Part shown: positions 1-50,960 of the stretch, in pieces
How the letters are laid out: each line of letters opens with the position of its first letter
How positions within the stretch are numbered: position 1 is the stretch's first letter
NCBI GenBank assembly: GCA_964535465.1
Contig: CAZHUY010000001.1
Location: 1 to 62,129, forward strand
Length of the DNA: 62,129 bases
Direction: 5' to 3'
Source of the DNA: an uncultured Myxococcales bacterium
GTDB lineage: Bacteria; Myxococcota_A; Polyangia; Fen-1088
Notes under the pieces: model-generated
Seen by the model: the letters and a program-made list of their open reading frames with translations, nothing else
Database searches by the model: none
Told to the model about the DNA's origin: nothing
Made by a program: the position numbers and the translations under genes

Positions 1-1
1 G

Positions 2-1564
2 CAGGGTCCAAGGCTCGGGGGCCGCGGGATCCATCACCAGTTGCAGCTCGGCCGGAGTCACGCAGGCGCCGTCGGTCCAGCCACACAAGGCCAGCGCGGA
101 CCGGCGCACGGCCGGATGCGCGCACAGATCCGCTTGCGCGGGCGACGAAGCGTACGCGACGTCCAGGGCAGCCTCTCCCGGTCGCGCGCGTTCTTCCGCC
201 TCAGCCAGCTCCGCCAGCGTGTCGGTCATGGGCTGACCAAGGGCAGCGGCGAAGCGGCCCCAAGTCGCGCCGGCCGGGGCATGCAACCCCAACAGCCAAT
301 CCGTACCCGCCGCGGCTCGTGCGGGCTCGCGCGCCGGGGACAAAAAGAGCTCGAAGCTGGCGGGCAGTCCCTGCTCGGGCAGGAGCCGCTCCAACGCCTC
401 AGGATCGAGATCGATCTCGTGCCTTCCATGTGCCGCGGCCTGGGCCAGAGCGTCCGCTAGAAAAGCCAGGACATCGAGGTCGGGCGTCTGCCCGGATTTC
501 TCATCGGCCTTCTCCGCCAGGGCGCTGCCGAATCCCCCCGTGGCCAGCTCGGCCACGTCGAAAGCACCGGCGCCAAACAGCTCGACGAAGGTGTCCAACT
601 GCTCGGCCAGTCCGGCATCGCACAGTCGCTCAGCCGTCGGCCCCACCAGGGCCTCCTGCAATCGAAACAGCAACGGAGAGCAGGCCACCGCCCGTTCCGC
701 CGCCGCACGCGAGAGCCGTAGCGGATGGCGCGGACGATGCCTTAGGATCCCGGTCAGGTCGCTGCTCGAACGGCTGGCGCCGGGAAGATCGGCCAGCCGT
801 GACCGCGCATCGGTCACCGATTCGGCGGCGTCCAGGGCCAAACCTTGGCGAATGGGATCGACCAGGGGGGCGAGCACGTCTGGCAGAGCGGCAAGCCGCT
901 TGGTCATCCAGGTCGCACACGGCGGCCCCACCAGAGGCGGACAGAGATCGTGGGTCAGCACCCCGCGATCGACGAGGACCAAGAGCAGCTCGTCCGCCGA
1001 CTCCTCATCACCGGCGATGTCCAGCATGGCTTGCCCGAGCCGCGGCCACGGACACCACTGCCAAGCATGCTCGATGACGGTCGCGAGGACATCGTCGATC
1101 TCGCCGAAACGAACCTCCAAGCCGTCGCGCTCCAGCGCCAGCCACACCGCCTGCTCGCCCGCCGCCAACAGAGAAGGCACCACGCGCAGGCGCACGTGCG
1201 GCCGAAGTTCGGGCCACTCGAGCAGCTCGCGGCCAAGCGCGGCCACGCGCTCCCAAGTTGGGGCCAGTGCCGCCTCGACGAGGCCGGTTTCCATGCGGGT
1301 GCGCGCGCCCCATTGTCCCATGGCTACCCCTGCCAGCAGCCCCGCCGGGGTGGGACGAAAGGCCGCGCGACGGGCGTAGCGAGACAACGAGGCCGACGCG
1401 TCCGTCTGTCCGCGTTCCAGCGCCGCGGCCAGATCCGGGCTGGCCAATTGGATCGCGGCCGATCCCAAGGGATGCCGTTGCAGGGCCGCCGCCGCCCGGG
1501 GCAGCTCGCGCACGGGCAAGAGCGGCGCGCGCACGAGGAAGCGTGAGAGCAGGTGCAAAGCCAT
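2..1564 (-). CDS. LanB-type lantibiotic dehydratase family protein, N-terminal 521 codons only (continues beyond left edge)
   Basis: Open minus-strand frame from the ATG at 1564 to the window edge. All tta/cta/tca triplets on the + strand were checked and none falls in this frame. It is missing from the ORF track only because no stop lies in the window. The product MALHLLSRFLVRAPLLPVRELP... and ...SRYARRAAFRPTPAGLLAGVAMG... carries the N-terminal signature motifs of Lant_dehydr_N proteins. Confidence 0.7.
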   Translation of the reverse strand, partial: MALHLLSRFLVRAPLLPVRELPRAAAALQRHPLGSAAIQLASPDLAAALERGQTDASASLSRYARRAAFRPTPAGLLAGVAMGQWGARTRMETGLVEAALAPTWERVAALGRELLEWPELRPHVRLRVVPSLLAAGEQAVWLALERDGLEVRFGEIDDVLATVIEHAWQWCPWPRLGQAMLDIAGDEESADELLLVLVDRGVLTHDLCPPLVGPPCATWMTKRLAALPDVLAPLVDPIRQGLALDAAESVTDARSRLADLPGASRSSSDLTGILRHRPRHPLRLSRAAAERAVACSPLLFRLQEALVGPTAERLCDAGLAEQLDTFVELFGAGAFDVAELATGGFGSALAEKADEKSGQTPDLDVLAFLADALAQAAAHGRHEIDLDPEALERLLPEQGLPASFELFLSPAREPARAAAGTDWLLGLHAPAGATWGRFAAALGQPMTDTLAELAEAEERARPGEAALDVAYASSPAQADLCAHPAVRRSALALCGWTDGACVTPAELQLVMDPAAPEPWTL

Positions 1565-1571
1565 CGCGGTC

Positions 1572-2789
1572 TCAGGCCAAGATGTGATCGAGCAGGCGGC
1601 ACAGGGCAGCCAGTCGTACGCCACCGCGACCGGCTCCGCAGGGCTCGGGCTCGGGGATCTGCATGCGTGGCAGGCAGTCCTCGGGGGTGCCGGTGCGCTT
1701 CTTCAAGATGGCGCACGCCACGGTGTGGGCATCGAAGCGCGGCTTGGGCAGCTCGAGACCTTCGGCCGCCAGCGTGTTGCCGGGGAAATGCCCCCAGGTC
1801 ACCACCACGTCGCTCGGGCGCAGGAAGGCCTGCCATCTGGCCGCGAAGGAGTCCCAGGTTTCGCCGGAAAGCAGAGCGGTACTGCCGATGCGAATGTGGA
1901 AAGGCGTCGTGGGTGCCAAGGGATGGCGGGGGGCGATGACCGCCTCGAAGACCTCGCCGGTACTGGGCCGTCGGGCCAGCCAGTGCACGATCTCGGCCGC
2001 ATGGCGCACGGGCGCGTGGCGCGGCCAGGTGTTGGCCTCGCCATGAACGCACAGGATGTCGGTCTGGCGCTCGCGCAGAGTCGGCGGGATGGGACTGCGC
2101 GCCGGCCGGTTGTTACGCCGTGAATGCAGGCGATGGCGACTGCCCGGACTGGCGGCCACGTAGCGCAATTGCGATTCGACCATGGCGTGAAAGGGTCGCA
2201 GCATCGATTGAAAACGCTCGCGATCCCCTTCCAGGGCTCCCAGCACATGGGCCAGAGCCTCGATCGTGGCCGTGCAATGGAAGGCCGGCTCGCGCCGGAT
2301 GGGGTTGTAGGCGCTGGCCACGGCCGGCGTGAAACGCAGCTGCGGCAGTTGCATGAGCGCTGGATTGGCCTTGAGCAAGCGCTGCGCCTGTCCCCAAGTA
2401 CCGTCCACCAGAATCAAGGTCATGGGCGTGCCGGGAGGAACGGACTCCACGTCGCGCGCGTTGGGTCCGGGATAGATGACGTGCGCCTGCCCGCTGGCCA
2501 GCACGGCCTGCACCACCTGATCCTCGGAGAAATCGATCCCGACGCGCACGACGGCGTTGGGGAGGCACAGACGGGCGATGCGCACCGTCCCCACGCCCAC
2601 GTCGCGCTCGCGCGGGTGCTGCAGGATGATCACCCGCGTGCGGGTTTGCAGAGGCACGATGTGCGCGCAATAGCAGACGCTGACCGGACGCCAACAACGC
2701 GGGCACAGCTCGCGGGGCGCGGGTTCTTGCGCGGGGGTGACCAGGGCCTTGGGGGAAACGGACGGCGGCACGGGCAAGCCATAGTACAC
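1572..2789 (-). CDS. DTW-domain protein (tRNA acp-transferase fold) with ~200-aa C-terminal degenerate DnaQ-like extension
   Basis: 405-aa ORF. The N-terminal half has the DTW family signatures CPRCWRPVSVCYC, ILQHPRE and LILVDGTWGQA. The C-terminal half (ILCVHGEANTW ... VVVTWGHFPGN ... GGVRLAALCRLL) follows exonuclease-like motif order with the catalytic residues replaced (by eye). The stop at 1572-1574 is 7 nt upstream of the LanB ATG. Confidence 0.75.
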   Translation of the reverse strand: MYYGLPVPPSVSPKALVTPAQEPAPRELCPRCWRPVSVCYCAHIVPLQTRTRVIILQHPRERDVGVGTVRIARLCLPNAVVRVGIDFSEDQVVQAVLASGQAHVIYPGPNARDVESVPPGTPMTLILVDGTWGQAQRLLKANPALMQLPQLRFTPAVASAYNPIRREPAFHCTATIEALAHVLGALEGDRERFQSMLRPFHAMVESQLRYVAASPGSRHRLHSRRNNRPARSPIPPTLRERQTDILCVHGEANTWPRHAPVRHAAEIVHWLARRPSTGEVFEAVIAPRHPLAPTTPFHIRIGSTALLSGETWDSFAARWQAFLRPSDVVVTWGHFPGNTLAAEGLELPKPRFDAHTVACAILKKRTGTPEDCLPRMQIPEPEPCGAGRGGVRLAALCRLLDHILA

Positions 2790-2826
2790 GCCATGCGCGG
2801 CCGCCAGAACCCATTACAATGAAGGT

Positions 2827-3630
2827 GTGGTGAATTCGCTCTGCTGGTTTGTCGGTGCGCTGCTGGCCTCGTCCACCAGCGCGGCTCAATCGAAAGTCAC
2901 GACCTACGCGACGCCCGCGGCGGCGGTGCAGGCGCTCCTGGCCAGTCGTCCGCGCATGGTGGCGTTCGGCGAGTACCACCAACAGAAGAAGACAGCCAAG
3001 ATCCCCTCGGCGCTCAAGCGCTTCACCAGCGATATCCTCCCGGTGCTGGTCACGCATGGCGCGAGCGATCTGGTTGCCGAGACATGGATCACCACCGGAT
3101 CGTGCGGCGAGGAGGAGAAGAAGGCGGTGCTGCAAGTCAACGAGTCCACGCGCCGGCCGGCGCAGACCGAGGATGAGCTGGTCACCATGCTCCGCCGAAG
3201 CAAGGACGGCGGACTGCAACCCCGCATCCTGCAGATCACCTGCCAGGACTATCGGGCCATGATGGGGAATGGGGGCATGGACTACGATCGCCTGCTGCGC
3301 GTCACCCGCGATCAGTTGGAGACGCAGATACGCGCGGCCCTGGGCCGCCCCGAGAGCCACATGGTGGTCAGCTACGGCGGCGCACTGCACAACGATCGCG
3401 AGCCCTCAGCCGAACTATCGCCCTACGCCTTCGGCCCGGCCATTGCCCTCGCGGTCGGCGATCGTTATCTGGAGATCGATCTGTACGTGCCCGAATACAT
3501 CGCCAAGGACAAATCCATCCAAGCCCAGCCCTGGTACCGGCAGTACCGCGCGGCTTACCGGCCTGGTCACACCACCGTGGTCAGACGGGGACCGAATTCG
3601 TACGCGCTCATCTTCCCGCGCCGGAGGTAG
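2827..3630 (+). CDS. Secreted hypothetical protein, possible Tiki/ChaN/TraB-like fold
   Basis: 267-aa ORF with a GTG start and a signal-like N-terminus LCWFVGALLASSTSAAQS. The spacing FGEYHQQ ... LVAETW ... YGGALHND resembles the GxxH...E...H pattern of the Tiki/ChaN superfamily (by eye only). The start is uncertain because it lies only 37 bp from the divergent DTW gene. Confidence 0.55.
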   Translation: MVNSLCWFVGALLASSTSAAQSKVTTYATPAAAVQALLASRPRMVAFGEYHQQKKTAKIPSALKRFTSDILPVLVTHGASDLVAETWITTGSCGEEEKKAVLQVNESTRRPAQTEDELVTMLRRSKDGGLQPRILQITCQDYRAMMGNGGMDYDRLLRVTRDQLETQIRAALGRPESHMVVSYGGALHNDREPSAELSPYAFGPAIALAVGDRYLEIDLYVPEYIAKDKSIQAQPWYRQYRAAYRPGHTTVVRRGPNSYALIFPRRR

Positions 3631-5010
3631 TTAGCCGGGTCGGCGCAGGACCGCCGCGAAGAAGCCATCGGTGCCATGGCGGTGCGGGAAGACCTTGAGG
3701 AACGTGCCGTCGCCCAGGCGCCCTGCCCTCTCCTTGCCCCAGACGTCCTTCAACGGCATCAGGACGAAATCGGGACGTTCGGCCAGGAAACGCTCGACCA
3801 CGCCCTCGTTCTCCTGCCTCATGATGGTGCAGGTCGCATAAATCAAGCGACCGCCGGGCGCGACCAGGGGCGCGTAGGTCACCATCAGCGAGAGCTGCTG
3901 CGCGGGAAAGCTGTCGATGGTCTTGGCATCCAGACGCCAGCGCGCCTCGGGGTTGCGGCGCAAGGTCCCCATGCCCGAGCAGGGCGCGTCGACCAGCACG
4001 CGATCCCAACCGCCCAGCCTGGCCTCGCTGGGCCACTCGCTCCCCCGCACCTCGCGCGCCGCCACGTTGGACAGGCCCGCACGTCGCGCCCGCCGTCGCA
4101 GCTCTTCCAGTTTCTTCCCATTGGAATCGAGCGCCAGGATGCGGCCCTGCCCGTCGAGCAGCGCCGCCAGCGCCAGGGTCTTGCCCCCCGCGCCCGCGCA
4201 CGCGTCCACCACGCGGCCGCGCGGCGGCGGGGCCACGGTCTCAGCCACCAACTGACTGCCCTCGTCCATCACCTCGAACATGCCCTCGCGAAAGGCCGAC
4301 AACCCAAAGGCATTGACCCGGGTTTCGAAGACCAAACCCATGGGCGACAGCTCGGTGGGACTTGCCACCACGCCCTCTTCTTTCAAGCGCGCGATCAGCT
4401 CTTCGCGCGAGGCCTTGACCCCATTGGCCCGCACGGTCATCGGTGCCCGCTCATTCATGGCCGCGGTCAGGGCCAGCGCTTCCTCCTCGCCCAGATCATT
4501 CACCAGACGTTCGAGCATCCAGGTGGGGAACGACACACGCACGGCCTGCCGATCCAGGCCGGTGGTCTTGCCCAACCCTGCCTCCTCGTCGGTCGCCTTG
4601 CCCAGATCCACGTCCTTGCGCAGGATGCGGCGAACCTCGGCCTTGACCGCCTCGGCCGGCAAACCTTGTCGCAGCTCATAGACGATCAGCTTCAGCTCTT
4701 GCCGGGCCGAGGGCGAGAGCGCGTCCTGGGGGCCACGTCCCTGGGCCGCGGCGACCAACTCATCGACCACCGCCTGCAGCCGTCTCTCCCAGCGCACCAG
4801 ACCATAGACGGTTTCGGAGATCAGCCGTCGATCGCCGCTGCCCAACTGCCGATTGGCGCGAAATGTGGACGCCAGAATGTCGGTCAAGAATCCCCATTCC
4901 GAGGCGGCCTCGGCCACGATCTGCAGGGTCAGGGCACGCGCCTGGCCTGTCAGACGACGCACCGGCGTGCTGACCTGGACGGGATGATCGGAATCGTGGG
5001 AGTGGCTCAC
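3631..5010 (-). CDS. rsmB: 16S rRNA (cytosine-C5)-methyltransferase RsmB/Sun family
   Basis: 459-aa ORF with a NusB-like N-terminus followed by SAM methyltransferase motifs VVDACAGAGGKTLALAAL, DRVLVDAPCSGMGTLRRNPEARW and IYATCTIMRQENE. Confidence 0.9.
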   Translation of the reverse strand: MSHSHDSDHPVQVSTPVRRLTGQARALTLQIVAEAASEWGFLTDILASTFRANRQLGSGDRRLISETVYGLVRWERRLQAVVDELVAAAQGRGPQDALSPSARQELKLIVYELRQGLPAEAVKAEVRRILRKDVDLGKATDEEAGLGKTTGLDRQAVRVSFPTWMLERLVNDLGEEEALALTAAMNERAPMTVRANGVKASREELIARLKEEGVVASPTELSPMGLVFETRVNAFGLSAFREGMFEVMDEGSQLVAETVAPPPRGRVVDACAGAGGKTLALAALLDGQGRILALDSNGKKLEELRRRARRAGLSNVAAREVRGSEWPSEARLGGWDRVLVDAPCSGMGTLRRNPEARWRLDAKTIDSFPAQQLSLMVTYAPLVAPGGRLIYATCTIMRQENEGVVERFLAERPDFVLMPLKDVWGKERAGRLGDGTFLKVFPHRHGTDGFFAAVLRRPG

Positions 5011-5061
5011 GGGGCCACCTTATAGTGGGTGCCTGGGCGTGGGGCAACCCGCTGCTTCGAA

Positions 5062-5436
5062 TCAGCCCAGCTTGGCCTTGATGGTGCGCAACAGGGCCTC
5101 GAAGTTGACCGGCTTCTGAAAAACCGCGTCCAACCCCATCTCGCGGGTGCTGGTGGACACCGTCAGGGAATCGCCGAGCGAGCTCAAGAGGAGAACCGGT
5201 GCGGTGTTCCCCGCCAATTTCAATTCCTTGACCAGGCCGGTGCCCGAGTCGATCTCCTCCATCATCAGGTCCACGATGATCAGGTCTGGTCCGCTGGCCT
5301 TGAACTTCTTCAGGCCCTCCTCAGCCGAGAGCGCCGTCTCGGCGAGGTAACCGGCCTTGTTCAGGCGGAGGCGCAGGGCCTCTAGAATGTCCCCATCATC
5401 GTCCACGCACAGGATCAGGTACTTTCCGTCTTTCAT
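5062..5436 (-). CDS. Receiver-only (CheY-like) response regulator
   Basis: 124-aa ORF with ILCVDDDGDILE ... DLIIVDLMM ... PVLLLSS receiver motifs and no output domain. Its ATG lies 3 nt after the hoxW stop. Confidence 0.85.
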   Translation of the reverse strand: MKDGKYLILCVDDDGDILEALRLRLNKAGYLAETALSAEEGLKKFKASGPDLIIVDLMMEEIDSGTGLVKELKLAGNTAPVLLLSSLGDSLTVSTSTREMGLDAVFQKPVNFEALLRTIKAKLG

Positions 5437-5439
5437 GGC

Positions 5440-5952
5440 CTAGGCCTCTGGCTGGGGATCGCAGCCGCAGCGGCGATCGACATCATACTCCCTCGTATAC
5501 TCATCGAACCGGCGTTCCTTGAGCGCGTGTCTGGCGAAGGTCAGTGCGCTGGCGAGATTGGCCTGCGCGGCCTCGGACAGCGTCTCGCACATCTCGCCGA
5601 AGGCATAACCGCGAATCCCCAAGGTGAAGGCCCGGGTCTTCGCACCGAACATCTGCTGCGCCAGCGCCAACACCTGCCCCGGGGTGGCGCTGTGACTCGA
5701 AAAGCTCATCTCTCGGGCCGGCTCGACCCGGCTGAAGCGAAAGGGAGCAGGCCCCTTCATGTCGGCGTCGACGAAGATGACCACCTCATACCCGGCCAAG
5801 GTCGCGGAATCCTCGACGGAGAGTTGGTAGTCGGATTCGTAAACCACGCCCTCTACGCCCGCGTCCTCCAGGGCCGAAACCAACCTTGGTCCCAGGCCAT
5901 CGTCACCGCGGCCGAGATTGCCGTAACCATAGAAAAGGATCGGCCTGGTCAT
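5440..5952 (-). CDS. hoxW: Hydrogenase maturation (C-terminal processing) protease
   Basis: 170-aa ORF with GYGNLGRGDDGLGPRLV and FVDA motifs of HycI/HoxW endopeptidases. Its start overlaps the hoxH stop (ATGA at 5949-5952). Confidence 0.85.
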   Translation of the reverse strand: MTRPILFYGYGNLGRGDDGLGPRLVSALEDAGVEGVVYESDYQLSVEDSATLAGYEVVIFVDADMKGPAPFRFSRVEPAREMSFSSHSATPGQVLALAQQMFGAKTRAFTLGIRGYAFGEMCETLSEAAQANLASALTFARHALKERRFDEYTREYDVDRRCGCDPQPEA

Positions 5953-7382
5953 CCGCGACTCATCTCATGAAGGATCTGGCCCTGGTGGTCAACCAGGGTC
6001 ACATCCAGCGCCATCTGTCCCAAAGCATGCGTCGCGCATGACAGGCACGGATCGTAGGCGCGAATCGCCACCTCGATGTGATTCAAGAGCCCTTCGGTGA
6101 TCTCCTTGCCCGTAAGATGGTCCTGCGCCACCTTGGCCACCGCGCGGTTCATGGGCTCGTTGTTGTTGGTGGTGGAGACGATCAGGTTGGCCATCACGAC
6201 CTGATCGTTCTTGTCCACCTTGTAATGATGGAAGAGCGTCCCGCGCGGCGCCTCGATGAGGCCCACGCCCTCCTCGCGACGCTCGCCCTTGGTCACCAGG
6301 TCCGCGCCCTGCAGATCCTTGTCGTTGAGCAGCTCCTGGATCTTCTCGATGGCATGCAGCAGCTCGATCATGCGCGCCCAGTGGTAGGCCATGGTGATGT
6401 TGTTGGGCTTGCCCCCGGTGACCGCGCGAAATTCCCGGCGGGCGGCCTCGGCCAGCGGGGTATCGATGAAGTCCGCGGTGTTCAAACGCGCCAGCGGCCC
6501 CACCCGGTACCAGCCGTCCTTGGGTCCTATCTTGCGGATGAAGGGGAACTTCATGTACGACCAGTCGCGCACCTCTTCGGCGATGAACTCGACGTATTTC
6601 TGGTAGTCGATCTGGTCGAAGATGGTTGCGCCCTGGCTGTCCACGGCGCGCAGGTTGCCGTGGTAAAGGTCCATGGCGCCGTCCTCGCGCACCAGCGAGA
6701 GGTGATTCGAATCGAAGGAGCCGAAGGGCGCCAGCTCCTGCAGGTGACTCGTGGTGTAGTCGCGCGCGATGTGCACCGCCGACTTGGCCCACGTCATCTG
6801 CTGGTCGAGCTCCTTCAGGAAAGCATCGCGCTCTTCCAGACTGAGGTTCTTGTTCACCCCGCCGGGGATGGCGCCGGTGCCGTGGATCTTCTTGCCCGCG
6901 GTGGCCTTGATGATCTCCTGCCCGTACTTGCGCATCATCACCGCCTGGACGGCCAGGTCCGGGTACTTGCCGGCCACGCCGATCACGTTGCGAATCGCCA
7001 CCGGCGCATCGAAGCCGAACAGCAGATCGGGCGACGCCAGGTGGAAGAAGTGCAAGGCGTGCGACTGGTACATCTGCCCGTAGTGCATCAGGCGCCGTAC
7101 CTTCTCCGCCGTGGGGGTCAGGCGTGTCGCGCCCACGATCACATCCATGGCCTTGGCCGCAGCCAGGTGATGGCTGACCGGGCAGATGCCACACAAGCGC
7201 TGGACCAGCACCGGTATCTCCCAGAATAGACGACCTTGTATGAACCGCTCGAAGCCGCGGAACTCGACAATGTGCAAGCGCGCCTGCACGACTCTGCCGC
7301 TCTCGTCGAGCAAGATGGTGACCTTCCCGTGTCCCTCGACGCGGGTAACCGGCTCGATGACAACTCGTTTCACGACGCTCAC
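5949..7382 (-). CDS. hoxH: [NiFe]-hydrogenase large subunit, NAD-linked bidirectional type
   Basis: 477-aa ORF with the N-terminal RVEGHGKV and RLCGICPVSH motif and the C-terminal DPCLSCATH Ni-Fe ligand motif. A ~24-aa tail follows, of the kind removed by HoxW. Confidence 0.95.
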   Translation of the reverse strand: MSVVKRVVIEPVTRVEGHGKVTILLDESGRVVQARLHIVEFRGFERFIQGRLFWEIPVLVQRLCGICPVSHHLAAAKAMDVIVGATRLTPTAEKVRRLMHYGQMYQSHALHFFHLASPDLLFGFDAPVAIRNVIGVAGKYPDLAVQAVMMRKYGQEIIKATAGKKIHGTGAIPGGVNKNLSLEERDAFLKELDQQMTWAKSAVHIARDYTTSHLQELAPFGSFDSNHLSLVREDGAMDLYHGNLRAVDSQGATIFDQIDYQKYVEFIAEEVRDWSYMKFPFIRKIGPKDGWYRVGPLARLNTADFIDTPLAEAARREFRAVTGGKPNNITMAYHWARMIELLHAIEKIQELLNDKDLQGADLVTKGERREEGVGLIEAPRGTLFHHYKVDKNDQVVMANLIVSTTNNNEPMNRAVAKVAQDHLTGKEITEGLLNHIEVAIRAYDPCLSCATHALGQMALDVTLVDHQGQILHEMSRG

Positions 7383-7403
7383 GTCACACTCCTTGGCAGA
7401 AGG

Positions 7404-7952
7404 TCAGTCGTACTTGATCAGCCCATAAGGCAGCTTCACCGGCTTGCTGGTCAGCAGAGCCACCAGCGCCTCCCACAATGTGTCCGCCGAGGGCGGGCAT
7501 CCCGGCAGAGAGTAGTCGACCTTCACCACTTCATGGCAGGGATAGACCTTGTCGAGGAGCAGGGGCAGCTCCGGATCGTTGGGAATCTTGCGGCTCGGAT
7601 TGTAGACGGTGGGACCGTCGAGATAGGCCTCGTGCAGGCACTCGCGCACCGGGATCCAATTGCGCATACCCGGCAATCCGCCCATGGTCGCGCATTCCCC
7701 GACGACCACCAGAGTGTCGCAGTTTTTGCGGAAGCTCTGCAAGACGTGCACGTTCTCCTCGTTACAGCAACCACCCTCAATCAAACCAACCGCACAACGG
7801 TCAGTGAACTGTTTGATGTCGTTGATGGGGGATTTGTCGAAGTCCACCAGCTCAACCAGCTTCAAAATGCGCTCATCGATGTCCAGCAGCGACATGTGAC
7901 ATCCGAAACAACCGGCCAGGGAGACCGTGGCCACCTTGGGTTTGCCGCTCAT
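7404..7952 (-). CDS. hoxY: [NiFe]-hydrogenase small subunit (HoxY type)
   Basis: 182-aa ORF starting MSGKPKVATVSLAGCFGCHMSLLD, with further Cys clusters typical of the short group-3 small subunits. Its start overlaps the hoxU stop (ATGA). Confidence 0.9.
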   Translation of the reverse strand: MSGKPKVATVSLAGCFGCHMSLLDIDERILKLVELVDFDKSPINDIKQFTDRCAVGLIEGGCCNEENVHVLQSFRKNCDTLVVVGECATMGGLPGMRNWIPVRECLHEAYLDGPTVYNPSRKIPNDPELPLLLDKVYPCHEVVKVDYSLPGCPPSADTLWEALVALLTSKPVKLPYGLIKYD

Positions 7953-8680
7953 CGGGCCCCTCCTGTCTCGCTGTTCTTGCCGTGCTTTTCAATCTCGGAT
8001 CCGATGGGCTCCTTGTCGAAGGCTCGCTGGCCCACGGGCGTCGCGAAGCCCACGCGCTTCTTCATCAGGGCCCCGACGGGACAGATCGCACTCGCCATGT
8101 CCGTGACCGCGGCGTCGGTGCCCGCCAGCCCCGCGGCAGAATTCGCGGCCACCCGCTTGTGGGCCCCGCGCCCCCCGAACCCATACACATGCTTGCCGTC
8201 CAGCTCCTGCGAGGCGCGCACGCAGCGCGCGCACAGAATGCAGCGGTTGCGATCCAGGAAGATGTCGGGATGGCTGGCGTCCACCTCACGCAGCGGGAAG
8301 AAGTAGGGATACCGTGGGGCCAGCATGCCTAGGCGATACCCCATGGCCTGCAGCTCGCAGTTGCCGCTTTTCTCGCAGGTTGGGCACAGGTGGTTTCCCT
8401 CCACGAACAACATCTCGATCAGCTCACGTCGCATGCGGTGCAGAGTGTCCGTGTCATTCTCGATGACCATGCCCTCCGCGATGGGTTGTATGCATGCGGC
8501 TTGGGGACGTCCGTTGACCAACACGGTACAGACTCGACAACTACCCCAGGGGGAGAGGCCGCGCTTGGCGCACAGGTGGGGGATGTAGATTCCGGCCAAC
8601 GCCGCTGCCTGGAGGATGGTTTGTCCCGCCTGCCCCTGCACCTCGACGCCGTCGATGGTGATGGTGATGGTGCCACTCAT
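7949..8680 (-). CDS. hoxU: Diaphorase iron-sulfur subunit HoxU (NuoG-like N-terminal module)
   Basis: Start chosen at MSGTITITIDG (8680), 10 nt after the hoxF stop. The 42-aa N-terminal extension in the track would overlap hoxF. The product has a 2Fe-2S motif CAKRGLSPWGSCRVC...C and 4Fe-4S motifs CPTCEKSGNCELQ and CILCARCVRA. Confidence 0.9.
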   Translation of the reverse strand: MSGTITITIDGVEVQGQAGQTILQAAALAGIYIPHLCAKRGLSPWGSCRVCTVLVNGRPQAACIQPIAEGMVIENDTDTLHRMRRELIEMLFVEGNHLCPTCEKSGNCELQAMGYRLGMLAPRYPYFFPLREVDASHPDIFLDRNRCILCARCVRASQELDGKHVYGFGGRGAHKRVAANSAAGLAGTDAAVTDMASAICPVGALMKKRVGFATPVGQRAFDKEPIGSEIEKHGKNSETGGAR

Positions 8681-8690
8681 GATGTCCCTC

Positions 8691-10517
8691 TCACTTCCCG
8701 AAGTGAACGGACCGGCGTTGCGCCAGGGTTTCCGCCTGTGCCACAGCCGCGGACCCGTCGAAGGTGGGCAGCAGATCCGCCGCGGCTGGCTTGACCCGAC
8801 GTTCATACTCCGACCGGAAGGATCGCAGAGTGGTCAACACCGGCTGCGGTGAAGTCTGCCCCAAACCACACCGACTGGTCGCCTTGATGGTTTCGGCCAG
8901 CCCTTGCAGATACGCAAGGTCCTCGGGGCTGGCCTGGCCGCCAATCACCTTGCCCAGTCGTTCGTGCAATAGACGATTTCCCACGCGGCACGGGGTGCAA
9001 TAGCCGCAGCTCTCCTCGCAGAAGAACTCCATGAAGGCCTCGGCCACGCGTAGCACGTCCCGCCTGTGGTCGAAGACCATGATCGCGCCGCCCGTCGCCA
9101 AATCATCGAAACGCAAGCTTCGGCCGAAATCGCCAGGCGCGATCATCTGGCCCGAGGCGCCCCCCACCTGAACCGCCGCGGTCTCATGCGCGCCCACCAT
9201 GGACAGGAGCTCGTTCACCTTCACGCCAAAGGGCAATTCGTAAATGCCGGGGCGGTCGCAGTCGCCCGAGACGCTGTACAGCTTGGTGCCGGTGCTGTCG
9301 TTGGTGCCGATCGAGCTGAACCAACCCGGACCGTTTTCCAGGATGCGGGCCACGCAACAGAAGGTCTCGACGTTGTTGATGACCGTGGGCCGCCCCAGAT
9401 AGCCTGATTGAGCCGGAAAGGGTGGGCGGTTCTTGGGATCGCCGCGCTTGCCCTCGCACGAGCTGAGCAACGCCGTCTCTTCCCCGCAGATGTACGCCCC
9501 CGCCCCCATCTGGATGCGGATATCGAAATCGAACCCCTGTTTCCCCTGGATGCTTCGCCCCAATAGTCCCACCTCACGCCGCTCGTCGAGGATCTTCTCC
9601 AAGAAGGGCAAGAGATAGACATACTCGCCCCGCAGGTACACGATGCCCTCGGCCGCCCCCACCCCGTAGCCGGCGATGGTCATGCCCTCGAAGACCAAAT
9701 CCGCCGCCTCGGTCAGTATCACTCTGTCCTTGAAGGTGCCGGGCTCGCCCTCATCGGCGTTGCACACGATGGTCTTCTTCTCGCCGGCGGCGGCGCGAGC
9801 GAATTCCCACTTCATTCCGGTCGGGAACCCGGCACCGCCGCGCCCCCGCAGGCGTGAGACCTTGATGCTCTTGATGACCTCGGCCGGACTCTCGGCCAGG
9901 GCCTTGCGCAGGGCCGCGCCGCGCGCCAGCGGCGCGAAGACCACCGGTCCACGCTCGCGCAGGTTGTTCCTGACCATCGAGCGCACCAACGGATGGCTGT
10001 TGTTGCCATCGCCCAGGGTCAGGTTGAGGTGCTCGAGGTTGCCGGTCTTGCGCAGATCCGCGACAAGCTCGCGGGCACCATCGCCGGACAGACTCGTGAT
10101 GACACGATCATTGATGAGCGCGGCCGGAGCCTGATCGCTCATCCCTATGCATGGCGTGTGCTCGAGCGTGAACATGCCGTCCGCCGTGGTCTGGCCGAAA
10201 TCGATGCCCAGCTCTTGGCGCAAGGCCCGTCCCACGCGTTCGGCGCCATGCATTCGATCGATGATGTCGTTGCACAGGCGGATCACGAACTTGCCCCGAG
10301 GCCGGCTGGTGAGGAACGCGTAGAACGAGAGCGTGCTCTCCACCTCGACGCGAGGCACGCGCAAGGTCTGTGCGATGACGTCGACCGCCGAACCCAAGAC
10401 ACCGCCCAGGCGCTGATGCACTTCGAGCAGGATGTCCATCAAGCGGGTCCGCTCGTTGGCGAAGCGTCCGCAGATCCCTCGGATGACATCGTCCTGATTC
10501 TCAGCCATGTCGTTCAT
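8691..10517 (-). CDS. hoxF: Diaphorase NAD(P)H/FMN subunit HoxF (NuoE-like + NuoF-like fusion)
   Basis: GRGGAGFPTGMKWEF (NuoF FMN/NADH site), CGEETALL and CGYCTPCRVG (4Fe-4S), preceded by a NuoE-like thioredoxin-fold module. Start is taken at MNDMAENQ (10517); the ATG at 10508 is equally possible and the track start 10586 looks like an extension. Confidence 0.9.
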   Translation of the reverse strand: MNDMAENQDDVIRGICGRFANERTRLMDILLEVHQRLGGVLGSAVDVIAQTLRVPRVEVESTLSFYAFLTSRPRGKFVIRLCNDIIDRMHGAERVGRALRQELGIDFGQTTADGMFTLEHTPCIGMSDQAPAALINDRVITSLSGDGARELVADLRKTGNLEHLNLTLGDGNNSHPLVRSMVRNNLRERGPVVFAPLARGAALRKALAESPAEVIKSIKVSRLRGRGGAGFPTGMKWEFARAAAGEKKTIVCNADEGEPGTFKDRVILTEAADLVFEGMTIAGYGVGAAEGIVYLRGEYVYLLPFLEKILDERREVGLLGRSIQGKQGFDFDIRIQMGAGAYICGEETALLSSCEGKRGDPKNRPPFPAQSGYLGRPTVINNVETFCCVARILENGPGWFSSIGTNDSTGTKLYSVSGDCDRPGIYELPFGVKVNELLSMVGAHETAAVQVGGASGQMIAPGDFGRSLRFDDLATGGAIMVFDHRRDVLRVAEAFMEFFCEESCGYCTPCRVGNRLLHERLGKVIGGQASPEDLAYLQGLAETIKATSRCGLGQTSPQPVLTTLRSFRSEYERRVKPAAADLLPTFDGSAAVAQAETLAQRRSVHFGK

Positions 10518-10587
10518 CCTCTTCCGCAGACACAACTCCGAGCCGCCTCGCCACGAAAGCTCAAGCCCACCCCGACCAGAATCCACC

Positions 10588-21562: not shown

Positions 21563-22594
21563 ATGAGCGACGTGAGCGACGAAAGGATAGATGCGCCCGC
21601 CAGCCCCGCGGCTCCTGCCAGGCCCGGCTTCTTCAGCCGCCTGGGCCAGTTGCTGTGGATGAAGACGCGCGTAGCCGAGGCGCGAGCCAAGACCTTTGAC
21701 GCCTCCAAGCCGGGATACTCTTGGTATCAGGTGGCACGCCAGTTCTGCGACGACGTCGTGGTTCTGGAAGACAACCGACGCGAGGGCGGCGCGATTCCCC
21801 TGCTCGATTGCGCGGCGGCCGGGTTGCTGATTCGCTCCTATCTCGAACGCGAAGGCATGCCGGCCGGTTCGGCCTTGCTGACCGATGCCGACTGGGAAAA
21901 CGCACAGAAGATCCCCGCCATCTCCGAGGCGCTCGGCGCCCTCTCGCCATCCCAAGTCTCGACTCTGAAGAGCGTGCTGAGCTCCGAGCGCGACGCCGCC
22001 TTGGTGCGCGTGGCCCAGGAGGATCAGTCCACCCTCGTCCCCGCCATTCACCGGATGGTCACGCGTCTGATCGCCCCGCTGGACGTGGAAGCCAATCGCC
22101 TGCGCTTTGCCTTGCTGATGCGCCGCTTGCGGGTCGGCGTGGCCGCCGCGGTGGTGCTGGTCCTGCTCGGCCTGGCCGCCAACAAGGTCGGCGCGAAGTT
22201 TGCCAAGCCCAACCTGGCGTTGGGCCGCCCCGTCACCACCAGCAGCAATTTCCCCGGCATTCCGGCAGGGGGAGCCGCGCTGGTGGATGGGGATCGCGAG
22301 AACATGGGCTTTCACACCAACGCGGGCCCGCAGCAGTGGGCCATGATCGACCTCGGGGCGGTGGTGAAGTTCGACAAGATAGTCGTTTACAACCGAGCCG
22401 ACGGTCAGCACCAGCGTGCCATACCCATGCGCATCGAGGTCAGCAACGACGCCAAGACCTTCACGCTCCTGCGTGAGCGCAAGGAGATCTTCGAGAACCT
22501 GACCCTCAAGGACCTGAAGGCCGAGGCGCGCTACGTTCGGCTCCTCAACACTCCGCCCAATTACTTCCACCTCTCGGAGGTGGAGATCTTCTAG
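21563..22594 (+). CDS. Membrane protein with C-terminal F5/8 type C (discoidin) domain
   Basis: 343-aa ORF with a central TM (VGVAAAVVLVLLGLAA). The C-terminal LGRPVTTSSNF...VDGDRENMGFHT...WAMIDLG...FDKIVVYNR...YVRLL...FHLSEVEIF is typical of discoidin domains. Confidence 0.7.
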   Translation: MSDVSDERIDAPASPAAPARPGFFSRLGQLLWMKTRVAEARAKTFDASKPGYSWYQVARQFCDDVVVLEDNRREGGAIPLLDCAAAGLLIRSYLEREGMPAGSALLTDADWENAQKIPAISEALGALSPSQVSTLKSVLSSERDAALVRVAQEDQSTLVPAIHRMVTRLIAPLDVEANRLRFALLMRRLRVGVAAAVVLVLLGLAANKVGAKFAKPNLALGRPVTTSSNFPGIPAGGAALVDGDRENMGFHTNAGPQQWAMIDLGAVVKFDKIVVYNRADGQHQRAIPMRIEVSNDAKTFTLLRERKEIFENLTLKDLKAEARYVRLLNTPPNYFHLSEVEIF

Positions 22595-23961
22595 CGCCCG
22601 GCCACCGTCAGGTGCGAAACCCGCAGCGACGGGCTTTGCACCGAGCTGCGCGTGTCGGGGTCGTCCCCCACGGCGTCGATTCCTCGCCACAGCTGGTCGA
22701 AGTTGATGGAAATGGTGATCTCGCTGACCGGGTGAATGCGCGACCCTTTCTCGATCCAGAAGCCGCTCGCCCCCTGCGACCAGTCGCCCGTGACGGCGTT
22801 GAAGCCAAACCCCATCATGTTGGACACGTAGAGCCCTTGTTCGAGGTTCTCGAGCTCCGCCGCCGGAGTCTTGCCCGCCATCAAGATGAAGTTCGATGTG
22901 CTCACGTGCGGCCCGCCGCCCAAGGCGCGCCCTGCCGAACCGGTCGAGCCGCGCCCCAGCTTGCGGCCCGCGTAGCTATCGCACAGAAAGGTTCGCAGGA
23001 CCCCCTCGGACACGACCACGTTGGGCCTTGACGCCAGACCTTCGCCGTCGAAGGGACGAGACCCAGGGGCACGCCGCACGAGCGGGTGATCCATGATGGT
23101 CACCAAGGGTGAAGCCACCAACGTGCCTTCGCGCGAGGCCAGGTAGCTGTTCCGTCGCCACACCGCCCCGCCAGAAGTCACCGAAGCCAGGTGCCCCAGC
23201 AGGGACCGAGCGGCCTCGGGAGAGAACACCGCGGGCACTTGGCACGTGGCGACCTTGCGCGAGCCCAGCTTGGCCGTCGTCCGTCGTGCCGCCTCCAGAC
23301 CGACCGCCTCGGGATCGAGCAGTCCCGAGCGGAAACGCGACGCCGTCCAATAACTCCCGTTGCGCTTCTTGCCTTCGGCATCGTCACATAGGGGCGCGAC
23401 CATCAGGAACAAGCTGGTTCCTCGGGTTCCGCCCGAAAACCCGGCCGAGCTGGCAAAGGCCGAGGCACCCATCACCCGACTCACGCTGGCACCATCCGAA
23501 TTCGTCACACGCCTGTCGGCGTTCAGGGCCGCGCGCTCCCCAGTCCTGGCCATTTCCAGGGCGCTGACCACGTCGAACGAGAGCGCATCTTCGTCCCACA
23601 AGTCGAGATCGGGGATCTCGCGCGCCATCAGATGTGGTTCGGGCAGGTCGGCCAGGACATCGGGTTCAGCCAGAGCGCACAACGCCACCGTCTCCTGGGC
23701 GAATTGGCGCATGCCCGCTTCGGAGAAGTCCGACGTATAGGATGTGGCCACGCGATGGTCGCGCAGAACCCTCAGGCCGAGCCCGCGGCTCCCTGCCTCC
23801 TTGACCAACTCCGGCTCGCCCAAACGCACCTTGACCTCCAGCTCGCTGCCGTCACGGACCAGCACCTCGGCCCCCTCCGCGCCGGCCGCCAGGGCGAAGG
23901 CCAGCATCTTCTCCGCCCACTGCTGACAGCGCGAGGCATCGGGCACGGTCGCGGCGCTCAC
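22591..23961 (-). CDS. pmbA: Metalloprotease partner PmbA (TldE)
   Basis: TldD/PmbA-family sequence without HExxxH. The GTG start at 23961 overlaps the tldD stop (GTGA). The longer track ORF (to 24054) would overlap tldD by about 100 nt. Confidence 0.85.
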   Translation of the reverse strand: MSAATVPDASRCQQWAEKMLAFALAAGAEGAEVLVRDGSELEVKVRLGEPELVKEAGSRGLGLRVLRDHRVATSYTSDFSEAGMRQFAQETVALCALAEPDVLADLPEPHLMAREIPDLDLWDEDALSFDVVSALEMARTGERAALNADRRVTNSDGASVSRVMGASAFASSAGFSGGTRGTSLFLMVAPLCDDAEGKKRNGSYWTASRFRSGLLDPEAVGLEAARRTTAKLGSRKVATCQVPAVFSPEAARSLLGHLASVTSGGAVWRRNSYLASREGTLVASPLVTIMDHPLVRRAPGSRPFDGEGLASRPNVVVSEGVLRTFLCDSYAGRKLGRGSTGSAGRALGGGPHVSTSNFILMAGKTPAAELENLEQGLYVSNMMGFGFNAVTGDWSQGASGFWIEKGSRIHPVSEITISINFDQLWRGIDAVGDDPDTRSSVQSPSLRVSHLTVAGR

Positions 23962-25409
23962 GTGCGTGTGCCTCCCACGGTGATGCGGGCGATCTTGAGG
24001 GTCGGGGTGCCCACACCCACGGGCACCGATTGGCCATCCTTGCCACAGGTCCAAGTCCCGTCGGATTGCCGAAAATCGTGCCCCACCATGGTCACCTGCC
24101 GCAACACCTCGGGACCATTGCCGATCAGATTCACGCCCCGCAAGGGCGCGGTCAACCGGCCGTCCTCTATCAGGTAGCTCTCGGTCAGCGAGAAAACGAA
24201 ATCACCGTTCGAGATGTTCACCTGGCCACCGGAAAAATTCTTGGCGTAGACACCCCGTTTCACCGAGCGAATGATGTCTTCGGGCGCGTCCTGCCCCCCC
24301 AGCAACAAGGTGTTGGTCATGCGGGGCAAGGGCTGACAGCGATAGCTCTCTCGCCGGCCGTTGCCGCTGGCCTGAAGGTGAAAGTGCCGGGCCGAGATGC
24401 GGTCATGCAGGTACCCGCGCAAGATTCCCTTATCGATGAGCAGGTTGCGCTGTCCCGCATGCCCCTCGTCGTCCACGTTGATGGATCCGCGCGCGTGCCC
24501 CACCGTGGCGTCGTCCACCACGCTGCAAAGGGGAGAGGCCACCTGTTGCCCGATTTGGTCCGTGTAGTTGGAGGTCCGCTTCCTGTTGAAATCTGCCTCG
24601 AGCCCGTGCCCAACCGCTTCGTGGAGCAGGATCCCCGATTCCCCCGGACCGAGCACGACCTCCATGGGTCCAGCCGGCGCCTCTTGAGCATGCAGCATGG
24701 CGAGCGCCAGACGGGCAGCCTCGCGTCCATGGTCCTCGGGCGCATGTCCATGCATGGCGAAGAGCTCCAGGCCTCGACGAAGCGCGGTCGCGGAACGGCC
24801 GGCCTGTCGCCGACCATTCTCCTCAGCCACTGCCTGGACCGAAAGACGCACCATGGGCTGAACGTCCCTGGCCACCATTCCGTCGGAGGTGAAGATGAGG
24901 ATCTCGCGCCACTCGTCGGCCAGCGCCGCCTCGACCCTCACGATGCGAGGATCATGGGCGCGAGCCGCCCCATCCGCCCGGCGAAGCAGGGCCACCTTCT
25001 CCTCTCCCGAACGCAGGAGCGACGATTCGAGCACCGGGTAGGCGTCTCCCACCGCCAACTCGTTCAACCCTAGCGCAGCCGTCGCGCCTCCGCTCTTCGC
25101 TATCTGACCAGCGGTCCGCGCGGCCTGCAGCATGCGCGTCGACGACAGCTCTTCCGTGTACGCATAGCCCGTGGCATCTCCGCACAGCACCCGCACTCCC
25201 AGGCCCACGGTCGTCACCCGCCCGACCCGGCGCACCTTCCCCTCCTCTAAGACAAAATCGGATCCGATACGAGACTCGAAGTATAGGTCAGCGTAATCTC
25301 CCCCTGCCCCCAAGGCCTCTCCCAGCAGACGTTCAGCCGTTGCCGCATCAATCCCGTCCAGGAGGGACCTGGAGAGTCCTGGACGCAACAGATCGGGCCG
25401 TTCCGTCAC
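23958..25409 (-). CDS. tldD: Metalloprotease TldD
   Basis: 483-aa ORF with GDYADLYFE near the N-terminus and the [12 protein letters not shown] zinc motif. Confidence 0.9.
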
Positions 25410-29847: not shown

Positions 29848-30936
29848 CTACCCGTGCCTGTGCACGATGCGAACGCCAAGCTGCTCACCGAGCGTCACCA
29901 CCTCTCCCGTAGCCCAAAGCTGGTCACCCACCCGCAGACTGACGCCGTCGCCGGGCCGGGGACCAAGCTTGAGCGATCCTTCTCTGGCAAGTCTGACCAG
30001 CTCGTCCGAACGCAAACTGATGCGTCCCAGTTCTGCGACAGCTTCCACCGTGGTGCGAGACGGGTCCGAGGTCTCGGGCGAGGCAGGCGCGGCTGGCTTC
30101 CAACCCGGGTTCTGATTCCGAAACGCCGCTGTCTCCTCTTCCATCGGCGACCAAGAACCCTCCACAACCAGTCTGCTGTCTGGTTCGAGACGCGCGGAGA
30201 CACGGGACCGCCCAACCAGAAGTCTCACAGGCCATGCGGCCCCGGGGACGAGGCCAGGAGTCCCATCGAACACCAGCGCATCGCCCGGCACGGCGGCAGC
30301 CAGGTCCGCGGCTGGCACCTCGGTTCGGCCCAGCTCCAACACGCCCTCTGCCCCTGTGTCGTCGGACGGGATGGCCGCCGGATCGAGGTCGATCCCATCA
30401 GCCACCATGGCCAGGGGCCCGAGAAGAAGCGCACGGCCGTCTATCTCCGCTGCACCTTGAATCGTCCCCTCTATCAGGACCTGCCTGCCCTGCACACAGG
30501 GCTGCCCCTCCCCCGGGGCCACGGTCGCCCAACCCGCCAAGCCCAAGGAGCGCAAAGCGGCGAGCACCAGCGCCGCCATCATGCCCTTCTCGGCCAAGCC
30601 GAGCGGCCGAACCAGCCAAGGGGTCGCGTCGCCCAGAACGGCCCGAATCAGCCCACGGCAGACGTTCAAGGACACGCCTAGCCAAGCCTGCTCGCTTGAC
30701 CTCGAGAGTCGGAACCACGCCAAATCCTCGACCTGCTCCCGGTCCAACTCATCAACCAAGGCGATCCTGTCGGGCTGCAACCGAAGGTCACCGATTCTCT
30801 TGATCGAGATCACCGCTGGGCAGGGAAGACGCGCCCAGACGCGAGCCAGGACCAAGGCCGCCTCACCCGACAGGCGGGACGCCGATAGCCCTCCCTCGGG
30901 CGCGGAACTCTGCGACCTATCATCTGCCGCGGTCAT
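29848..30936 (-). CDS. SctQ/YscQ (FliM/FliN)-like protein with two SpoA domains
   Basis: 362-aa ORF. The C-terminal GRISLRSDELVRLAREGSLKLGPRPGDGVSLRVGDQLWATGEVVTLGEQLGVRIV is a typical SpoA/FliN C-terminal domain. A second SpoA-like segment is LELGRTEVPAADLAAAVPGDALVFDG...PVRLLVGRSRV. Confidence 0.6.
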   Translation of the reverse strand: MTAADDRSQSSAPEGGLSASRLSGEAALVLARVWARLPCPAVISIKRIGDLRLQPDRIALVDELDREQVEDLAWFRLSRSSEQAWLGVSLNVCRGLIRAVLGDATPWLVRPLGLAEKGMMAALVLAALRSLGLAGWATVAPGEGQPCVQGRQVLIEGTIQGAAEIDGRALLLGPLAMVADGIDLDPAAIPSDDTGAEGVLELGRTEVPAADLAAAVPGDALVFDGTPGLVPGAAWPVRLLVGRSRVSARLEPDSRLVVEGSWSPMEEETAAFRNQNPGWKPAAPASPETSDPSRTTVEAVAELGRISLRSDELVRLAREGSLKLGPRPGDGVSLRVGDQLWATGEVVTLGEQLGVRIVHRHG

Positions 30937-31073
30937 CGTAACCCTTGCCTAGGCTTGAGAAGCGACCGCCACCACGACCCTGCGCGGCTATCGCGGGATC
31001 GCGGGGAAGACTGGTCGATTTTCCCAATCGGCGACTCTGGACATCACCACGCGTATCAGCCATTCTCTTCCTC

Positions 31074-31436: not shown

Positions 31437-31483
31437 CCCCGCCCGCTTGACAGGAAGCGCGATGGGGGCAAGATGACCGCAGC

Positions 31484-32425: not shown

Positions 32426-32496
32426 ACCGAAAATGGGATGGGCTGTGAAAGAGACTAGATTAACCTCTCATCATACGAATGCGCGGAGGATAGCCC

Positions 32497-49939: not shown

Positions 49940-50960
49940 TCTTCCCGACTTCGGGTAGTTGGAAACCTGGAACAGTCCGAGCTTTGGACAGGCATCTCTG
50001 GATTCCGGACCGGCCTTGCCTGGATGACCGCCTTATCGGTTGGGTCAAAGACGCGTTTGTTCCGCTCCGAGGATCATCTCAGGCGCCACCAAATCCGTCT
50101 CGTTCTCATACAGATGTCCTTCCTGCCACTGACGGCAGCGAGGCGCTTAGCGGGTGGCGGGGCGATTCCTCGGGGGCGGAAGGAGCTGCTCCTCGGGCCG
50201 TCTGCGGGCCGAGGATGCCAAGCGACGATCGAGTCCATCATGGACGGGCGCACGCGGAACCTTGAAGCTCTCCCGGGCCCTCGGCGCCCGGCCTGAGATG
50301 GACGTCCCCCGAGGAACGACCCGACGACCGCGCGCCTCGCGTCCGCTTTCGATGACGTCCCTTCCTCGCGGTCCCACCACGCGGCTCGCCTCTCCCCTAA
50401 CTTCGCCCTCGTCCCTGCAGGGATCCCACAGCATCGCGTGTTGTTCCCTCCCCTGACATCGACCTCGCCTACTCATCGCCTTGCGACCCCTTCCCCGCTC
50501 GCACGAGGTGCCCACCCTGGCGGCGTGACCACGAGGTCTGGGCCGCCGCCCAAGCCGCGGGCCGGTTCCTGGTCACCCAAGACCTCGACTTCTCGGCTGT
50601 CTGGTGGTTGCTACCCCGACGTAGGTGCGAGTCTTGCGACCGCCGACCTGATGGTCGTCGCGGATGTGCAGCAAGAACGCGCGATCGTCCTGCACAGGGG
50701 AGCCGCCTCGGCGAAAATGCGATCCCGCAGGTAGGGGCTGATCCCGCCCTCGGTGACGACGTCCACGCGACGACCCCAAAGACCAAGATACCTCTAGCAC
50801 CTGGCCCAGCGTGAGGGACAAGCCGGCCCATCCGCAACATAGGTGACCTTTTCTGACAAAAGTCGGCGTCTAGAGACAAGAGGGATATCCACGTAAGAAC
50901 CACGGGGGCCAAGAGAGCTCTCGTGTCTCCCGTCCCCGCTCACGATCTGGAGGTTCACCC

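Follow-up and report, generated by a model that had tools for sequence, protein, structure and literature searches.

The left edge of a 62,129-nt stretch of contig CAZHUY010000001.1 from an uncultured Myxococcales bacterium (assembly GCA_964535465.1; the whole stretch is hereafter called the window) cuts through a minus-strand gene for a LanB-type Ser/Thr dehydratase. A first-pass annotation had taken this gene as the start of a locus for a peptide that is made on the ribosome and modified after translation (a RiPP). We consider it probable that the gene encodes a full-length, class-I-type LanB, catalytically competent in appearance, which stands as an orphan in a housekeeping neighbourhood and has a substrate that is unlinked or non-canonical. 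The identity and completeness of the gene, the conservation of its residues, its context and the selection acting on it are all shown by the analysis. Three features within the window define the gene:

1..1564, minus strand: LanB-type Ser/Thr dehydratase, 5′ 54 % of the gene (codons 1-521 of 971), glutamylation domain; from the open frame, Pfam, the structural model and the overlapping contig L079

1346..1378, minus strand: motif Y63-ARR66-AAF-R70-P-T72-P73, equivalent to NisB Y80, R83, R87 and T89 of the glutamylation active site; from the alignment to 4wd9

254..256, minus strand: codon for R437 (in WGRF), equivalent to NisB R464; from the alignment to NisB

Reading frame and family of the edge gene

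The minus-strand frame across positions 2-1564 comprises 521 codons with zero stops, just as had been claimed from the ATG at 1564 to the edge, and the remaining five frames contain 1-10 stops each. Its translation starts with MALHLLSRFLVRAPLLPV and holds SRYARRAAFRPTPAGLLAGVAMG further inside, in agreement with the residues given before. The GC content by codon position (0.78/0.54/0.79) is similar to that of the adjoining genes and bears out the GC-rich third positions noted earlier; the in-phase antisense frame shows the mirror image of this signature, so that composition alone cannot choose the strand, which was set by homology. The stop codon (TGA) of the next minus-strand gene upstream lies 7 nt before the ATG, alignments with orthologues begin at residue 1, and a separate gene call on L079 has the same start. 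From this start evidence and the homology of the minus-strand gene it follows that the plus-strand open reading frames (ORFs) at 41-1546 are antisense shadows, as proposed. The gene had indeed been missed by the ORF list, solely because the lister never reports ORFs that run off an end.

The check suggested for the 521-aa fragment, a comparison with Pfam Lant_dehydr_N (PF04738), gave a significant match (E 1.3e-35, 123 bits against a cutoff of 28) spanning profile positions 3-494 of 649. No NCBIfam model matched the fragment or the neighbouring genes, and PADLOC returned no match for the LanB, the DTW-domain protein encoded upstream of it or a 267-aa protein next to the latter. A large protein collection yielded 56 homologues, the best of them at E 1e-193 and 76 % identity; those with a taxon name come nearly all from metagenome-assembled genomes (MAGs) of Polyangia or Myxococcales, the full-length ones measure ~850-900 aa and combine PF04738 with PF14028, and their database names often read ‘thiopeptide-type bacteriocin biosynthesis protein’. 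Given the Pfam match and these homologues, the frame is clearly no chance ORF. When a profile of 21 family members (alignment A1) was compared with the Protein Data Bank (PDB), it matched MadB (9g04, PMC12241602; E 7e-37), MibB (1e-36) and NisB (3e-20). The 521-residue fragment was also modelled with AlphaFold (pLDDT 83, pTM 0.81), and the model gave significant Foldseek matches confined to the LanB-type enzymes MadB, MibB, NisB, TbtB and GodF, with query TM-scores (TMq) of 0.65-0.71 to the full-length MadB, MibB and NisB and of 0.52-0.53 to the split TbtB and GodF.

In a HMMER profile alignment to chain 4wd9, residues Y63, R66, R70, T72 and R437 of the fragment occupy the positions of NisB Y80, R83, R87, T89 and R464. 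The glutamylation-site residues Y63/R66/R70/T72 are nearly invariant across the 21 clade members, and the R437 column is invariant. A role of NisB R464 in glutamylation was reportedly described by Ortega et al. in 2015. NisB cannot do without Y80 and H961, and R83, R87 and T89 are important to it (PMC4341554); its residues for elimination are R786, R826 and H961 (PMC4979651). The Pfam match, the comparison of the family profile with the PDB, the NisB alignment and the Foldseek result thus uphold the first-pass assignment of the fragment to the N-terminal part of the tRNA-dependent LanB-type family.

The complete gene carries an elimination domain

The missing part of the gene was read from L079, a 10,025-bp short-read Logan contig (SRR8925774) retrieved by exact-protein lookup with the response regulator of the window (5062-5436); the same lookup with the DTW gene, which has a GTG start, gave no match. 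L079 shares 99.97 % DNA identity with window positions 1-6573 (6,573 bp, 2 mismatches) and all 521 window residues of its LanB are identical, so it comes from the same population as the window. It reaches 3,452 bp beyond the left edge. The LanB stop codon lies 1.35 kb past that edge and the complete protein has 971 aa, of which 450 fall outside the window, where the rest of the enzyme had been predicted to lie. Precomputed Pfam annotation places PF04738 and PF14028 on this single polypeptide, and its R762, R805 and H936 correspond to NisB R786, R826 and H961. The intact orthologue on L010 (982 aa) likewise matches both the N-terminal (E 7e-60) and the C-terminal domain (E 7e-36).

These data settle the choice between a LanB and a peptide aminoacyl-tRNA ligase (PEARL), which had been made to hinge on an elimination domain. 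A PEARL or small LanB would ligate an amino acid from aminoacyl-tRNA to the C-terminus of a peptide, without elimination, and the fragment would be compatible with such an enzyme in that the window shows the N-terminal domain only and its motifs are common to LanBs and PEARLs. Because Lant_dehydr_C (PF14028) and its catalytic residues are found in the same polypeptide, the protein is a full LanB and not a PEARL; the fragment model, too, is nearer to the full-length LanBs than to the split enzymes. The PEARL reading is already refuted by the full gene and keeps practically no probability.

No RiPP cluster found in the left flank

LanB genes normally cluster with LanC, LanA and LanT. This habit, together with a gene that runs off the window border, would suit the border of an ordinary lanthipeptide (class I) or thiopeptide cluster with its precursor and partner enzymes just left of the window, as first claimed. 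The flank tells against it. On L079 only 2 nt separate the LanB stop from a convergent thioredoxin gene (120 aa), beyond which come an 84-aa ORF on the thioredoxin strand and an S1 RNA-binding gene, and the 2.1 kb of sequence after the stop contains no RiPP gene. Syntenic relatives carry, within ~10 kb past the N-terminal LanB call, the remainder of LanB, thioredoxin, a 225-aa protein, PadR, S1, TPR, DUF1877 and DNA ligase, or else a DUF2156 protein; no RiPP gene occurs in the ~10 kb downstream of L002- and L012-type loci, and the same non-RiPP gene order recurs in ~11 genomes. On the window side the order is the DTW gene, a divergent gene for the 267-aa protein, RsmB, a response regulator, a hydrogenase maturation protease-like gene and HoxHYUF.

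Searches for individual partners were equally negative. Within ±10 kb of the L002 locus, precomputed Pfam annotation showed no LanC, ABC/peptidase exporter or protease, and LanT/LanP-type genes (ABC transporter, subtilisin-type protease) were absent near LanB on the window side, in L002 and in L079. The thiopeptide partners YcaO, [4+2] pyridine synthase and a second SpaB_C protein were not found in the annotated flanks. A precursor would be a short ORF with an FNLD-type leader and a Ser/Thr/Cys-rich core; a crude motif scan for small ORFs with an F(N/D)L(N/D) leader, which non-canonical precursors would escape because of its crudeness, was empty for the window, for L079 and for the seven syntenic loci that it covered. 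Class I lanthipeptide clusters have been recognized by a LanC within ~7 genes of the LanB (PMC7268733); no such LanC is found among the annotated genes of the present locus, which by this rule does not count as a class I lanthipeptide cluster.

A RiPP locus beginning at the left border therefore finds no support: the flank of L079 and the syntenic relatives hold housekeeping-type genes, and the precursor and partner enzymes placed just outside were not found, over 3.45 kb directly and ~10 kb by synteny. The first-pass annotation had itself named a lack of other RiPP genes within ~20 kb to the left as evidence against its proposal, and such a lack was observed to ~10 kb by synteny. With no other RiPP genes over that distance the cluster reading fails, and we hold it to be very improbable.

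Two proteins without a Pfam family lie close by. The 84-aa protein (L079:8373-8627, minus strand), ~1.8-2.05 kb left of the edge, is kept in 10 close-subclade loci as well as in L047 and L079 (alignment A2); its N-terminus is variable and its C-terminal segment is invariant, EETVPVQSCIERTLLHEVLRRQSAE, with conserved T, S, C, T and S. Its gene, upstream of PadR or thioredoxin, has the opposite orientation to LanB, and to regard its product as a LanB substrate is speculative. The 267-aa protein (2827-3630, plus strand) has a signal-peptide-like N-terminus and no match in Pfam, NCBIfam or PADLOC. Its gene diverges from the DTW-LanB unit, with start codons ~40 bp apart, and it is 62-65 % conserved in five syntenic loci; L063 keeps a 43-residue remnant.

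An orphan LanB clade under purifying selection

Scanning GTDB representative genomes with the LanB family alignment recovered 69 loci of the clade, the closest 66 % identical to the window, in MAGs labelled Myxococcales, Polyangia, Haliangiales, Myxococcota, Deltaproteobacteria or broader Proteobacteria. They fall into at least three distinct synteny groups, none of RiPP type, in which LanB has a stable chromosomal setting, and no partner gene is conserved throughout the clade. The close subclade numbers 12 loci (LanB 57-66 % identical). The order RsmB, a 274-aa gene, the DTW fusion and LanB is found in 11 of the 12, L013 being without DTW, and thioredoxin lies directly downstream of LanB in 10 of the 12; the 3′ side further contains the 225-aa protein, PadR, the 84-aa ORF, S1 and, in several loci, a stand-alone LPG_synthase_C/DUF2156 protein. 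More distant members (36-49 % identical) occupy other contexts, likewise unlike RiPP clusters: ~30 loci have, in this order, glycogen phosphorylase, a 208-aa signal-peptide protein, LanB, an M23 peptidase, GH6 and a His-phosphatase, and a further context reads Band_7, LanB, S9 peptidase.

The LPG_synthase_C/DUF2156 protein, of an aminoacyl-tRNA-dependent transferase family, was detected with E 6e-43 at L012:16143-17075 (minus strand) and also in L008, L011, L013 and L063. Its gene lies ~1.7-4.8 kb downstream of the LanB stop in syntenic relatives (3.2 kb in L012), and relatives that bear it have three tRNA-linked enzymes (DTW, LanB and DUF2156) inside roughly 8-10 kb. The 208-aa protein (L006:9343-9942, plus strand, and ~30 other loci, e.g. 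L060, L061 and L028) is encoded directly upstream of LanB on the same strand; it belongs to no Pfam family and has a conserved C-terminal tail, DPTRPP...RPPEASPY. By tblastn and hidden Markov model (HMM) search, this family had no counterpart in the window or the close subclade and no relation to the extension of the DTW protein.

Seven intact orthologues (971-982 aa) gave a ratio of nonsynonymous to synonymous substitution rates (dN/dS) of 0.18-0.26. With intact orthologues and dN/dS of ~0.2, LanB is evidently kept by purifying selection and is not a relic. Had the gene been left over from a lost lanthipeptide cluster, decaying and functionless today, the lack of partner genes would find a ready explanation, as would the several metagenome gene calls that split homologues into two ORFs (N- plus C-domain ORFs of 685+220, 548+186 and 717+279 aa in L001, L002 and L003). 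The gene is, however, intact in seven genomes at this dN/dS and its catalytic residues are conserved across 21 sequences. Because the gene is in one piece on the short-read L079, as it also is in several GTDB MAGs (971-982 aa), the split calls may be assembly frameshifts. We rate a functionless remnant as extremely improbable, and a pseudogene or relic was discarded as a candidate on the strength of dN/dS and intactness.

The DTW fusion protein upstream of LanB

The sole tightly linked gene of LanB lies inside the window and encodes a DTW fusion protein; the pairing is confined to one subclade. Its features are:

1572..2789, minus strand: DTW-domain protein with C-terminal extension, 405 aa, co-directional with LanB; Pfam PF03942, E 8.5e-46, residues 26-208

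2166..2714, minus strand: DTW domain (tRNA/rRNA aminocarboxypropyl-transferase family), DGTW motif in LILVDGTWGQA; from Pfam

1575..2084, minus strand: C-terminal extension, residues ~236-405, predicted DnaQ/DEDDh 3′-5′ exonuclease fold; from the model and Foldseek

The gene evolves with a dN/dS of 0.13-0.21. The extension (~170 residues) is rare, with 12 clusters in a 5.8-billion-protein collection, either DTW-fused or alone. Its model (pLDDT 85-97) matched ERI2 (E 9e-7), the Pol III epsilon subunit (TM 0.69-0.75), RNase T and ISG20 in Foldseek at a probability of 1.0. The conserved motifs HGE, WGHFP and GRGGxR stand in place of DxE, FD and HxxxxD, and only the Exo I Glu is retained, a mapping that is provisional in being made by motif and secondary-structure position rather than by superposition. 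The extension thus has, in its model, an RNase H-like DnaQ fold but appears to lack the full DEDDh acidic/His set. Because degenerate motifs stand where the family has DxE, FD and HxxxxD, it probably binds the 3′ ends of nucleic acids without being catalytic.

LanB and the DTW/pseudo-exonuclease protein might together form a tRNA-centred module, in which the fusion modifies, selects or hands over the tRNA of LanB, or LanB serves in tRNA-linked housekeeping. The 7-nt spacing and shared strand would agree with this, as would the position of the DTW gene, immediately upstream of LanB in 11 of the 12 subclade loci, the ability of the extension fold to bind nucleic-acid ends, the DUF2156 aminoacyl-tRNA-transferase-family gene ~3 kb off in several relatives, and a stand-alone DTW gene on the opposite strand, ~4-9 kb from the LanB start, in five loci of another synteny group. 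However, the DTW-LanB spacing ranges from 7 to 776 nt, L013 has a LanB without DTW, more than 50 LanB loci have no DTW within 10 kb, and distant DTW-plus-extension genes (L077 and L078) and a lone extension (L076) lie away from LanB; in L010 an ORF for a proline-rich membrane protein intervenes between DTW and LanB. The subclade genomes are moreover closely related, so that the adjacency may reflect inherited gene order. We judge such a module unlikely, if somewhat less so than the other alternatives.

The stand-alone DTW genes of the five loci (L031, L035, L053, L057 and L067) encode ~215-aa proteins, 33 % identical to the window DTW, downstream of LanB, and so provide a second case in which DTW co-localizes with this LanB clade. 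The interval between DTW and LanB in L010 (L010:9224-10001) overlaps the proline-rich membrane-protein-like ORF (within 8984-9976, plus strand), which shows that the two genes are separable. DTW-LanB as a conserved module was accordingly downgraded to a minor rival, being found in one subclade only, with distant fusions unlinked and an insertion in L010. A DTW-lanthipeptide link and orphan myxobacterial LanBs were also looked for in the literature, with no pertinent result.

Proposed function of the orphan LanB

Taken by analogy with NisB, MibB and MadB, the glutamylation and elimination chemistry and the tRNA use of the Polyangia LanB would run as follows. The N-terminal domain would take glutamate from Glu-tRNA(Glu) and attach it to Ser/Thr side chains of a bound peptide, and the C-terminal domain, outside the window, would then eliminate the glutamate to leave dehydroalanine or dehydrobutyrine. 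LanB closes a short DTW-LanB unit set within housekeeping genes. Because no cyclase, exporter, protease or recognizable precursor is found nearby, we infer that the substrate is unlinked, its gene most likely lying elsewhere in the genome, or else that it is a peptide or protein of a non-canonical kind. One would expect a dehydrated peptide as the product, in which lanthionine bridges need not be present.

Several points weigh against an orphan enzyme with an unlinked or non-canonical substrate. The left flank is known directly for 3.45 kb, and what lies beyond comes from synteny with orthologues that are 57-66 % identical. The flanks were annotated through Pfam, and a cyclase or precursor may be among the unannotated 267-, 225- and 84-aa proteins. 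No LanC was found among the annotated genes of the window, L079 or L002 ±10 kb, the rest of the genome not having been searched. The mapping of catalytic residues is confined to NisB Y80/R83/R87/T89/R464/R786/R826/H961. Finally, the chemistry of the clade is presumed from homology.

A different role is conceivable, in which the Polyangia-restricted LanB performs a housekeeping-type, tRNA-dependent protein dehydration and is no bacteriocin enzyme. It would install dehydro-amino acids in a non-canonical substrate encoded on the chromosome, for which the 84-aa protein in this subclade and the 208-aa secreted protein in the larger one are candidates, with the DTW fusion perhaps as its partner; we give this a slim chance, a little below that of the tRNA-centred module. 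The orphan LanB acting on an unlinked or non-canonical substrate remains our preferred reading, and it has consequences for genome mining. A LanB at a contig edge need not mean that a lanthipeptide cluster lies beyond, a correction that concerns mining pipelines and readers alike, and here nothing biosynthetically rich is hidden just past the left window edge. Conversely, a sizeable clade of full-length LanBs, found in Myxococcota only, is maintained by selection without a linked cyclase, precursor or exporter, and mining anchored on LanC (the criterion of PMC7268733) would miss such loci. Orphan LanBs of this kind could turn unlinked precursors into linear dehydropeptides or have substrates of an unusual kind.

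Other features of the window

A complete operon for a bidirectional NAD-linked [NiFe] hydrogenase of the HoxFUYH type occupies 5440-10586 (minus strand) and comprises a Nuo51/2Fe-2S subunit, a Fer2/NADH-G subunit, and small and large subunits, with a putative hydrogenase maturation protease at 5440-5952; the response regulator at 5062-5436 is a single-domain protein. The remaining 50 kb is core chromosome, with genes for a glycosyltransferase, kinases, SpoU, MFS, TldD/PmbA, Mfd, SurA, MDH, Kelch proteins and an E1 dehydrogenase, and no tRNA genes or Rfam families were found in the window. Two TldD/PmbA-family metallopeptidase genes lie side by side at 22591-25409 (minus strand), 21 kb from LanB, with no sign of a link; the TldD/PmbA pair processes microcin B17 in E. 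coli and is also a common housekeeping pair. A FliN-C-terminal-domain protein (29848-30948, minus strand) is followed by tandem genes for proteins with a zinc ribbon and a C-terminal FHA domain (31451-32425 and 32494-33762, plus strand). Two large Kelch-repeat beta-propeller proteins are encoded at 43650-46013 and 52389-54632 (both minus strand). At 50874-52367 two ORFs compete, one of 498 aa (plus strand) and one of 192 aa (minus strand); the plus-strand ORF has no Pfam match, and the minus-strand ORF was not scanned.

Comparison with known systems

The closest known relatives of the Polyangia LanB are NisB, MibB and MadB, which have the same two-domain PF04738 plus PF14028 layout, at 993-1115 aa against 971 aa, and the same fold (TMq 0.65-0.71, as given above); the NisB glutamylation and elimination residues are kept. 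Sequence identity to these enzymes is only ~14-22 %. In contrast to NisB-type systems, the Polyangia LanB has no adjacent LanC, LanA, LanT or LanP and lies in a conserved housekeeping context; its fragment has no NCBIfam equivalog, and the clade was found in Myxococcota/Polyangia MAGs only. The thiopeptide and goadsporin enzymes TbtB and GodF share with it the glutamylation-domain fold (Foldseek E 3e-11 and 1e-7) and, as far as homology indicates, tRNA-dependent chemistry, but they are split whereas the Polyangia LanB is fused, the structural match is weaker (TMq 0.52-0.53), and no YcaO, cyclodehydratase or [4+2] enzyme is near. PEARLs resemble the Polyangia LanB in the family of the N-terminal domain and in using aminoacyl-tRNA; they lack an elimination domain, whereas the Polyangia LanB has one complete with catalytic residues.

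For the neighbouring DTW protein, the nearest known systems are the TapT/YfiP-type tRNA acp3U transferases, to which its full-length DTW match (E 8.5e-46) and DGTW motif relate it. Typical members of the family are of ~215 aa and stand alone, those of other Polyangia loci included, whereas the window protein adds the ~170-residue extension with its predicted, degenerate DEDDh fold. The Polyangia LanB itself belongs to a known enzyme family, and its setting, that of an orphan, vertically inherited gene, is unusual.

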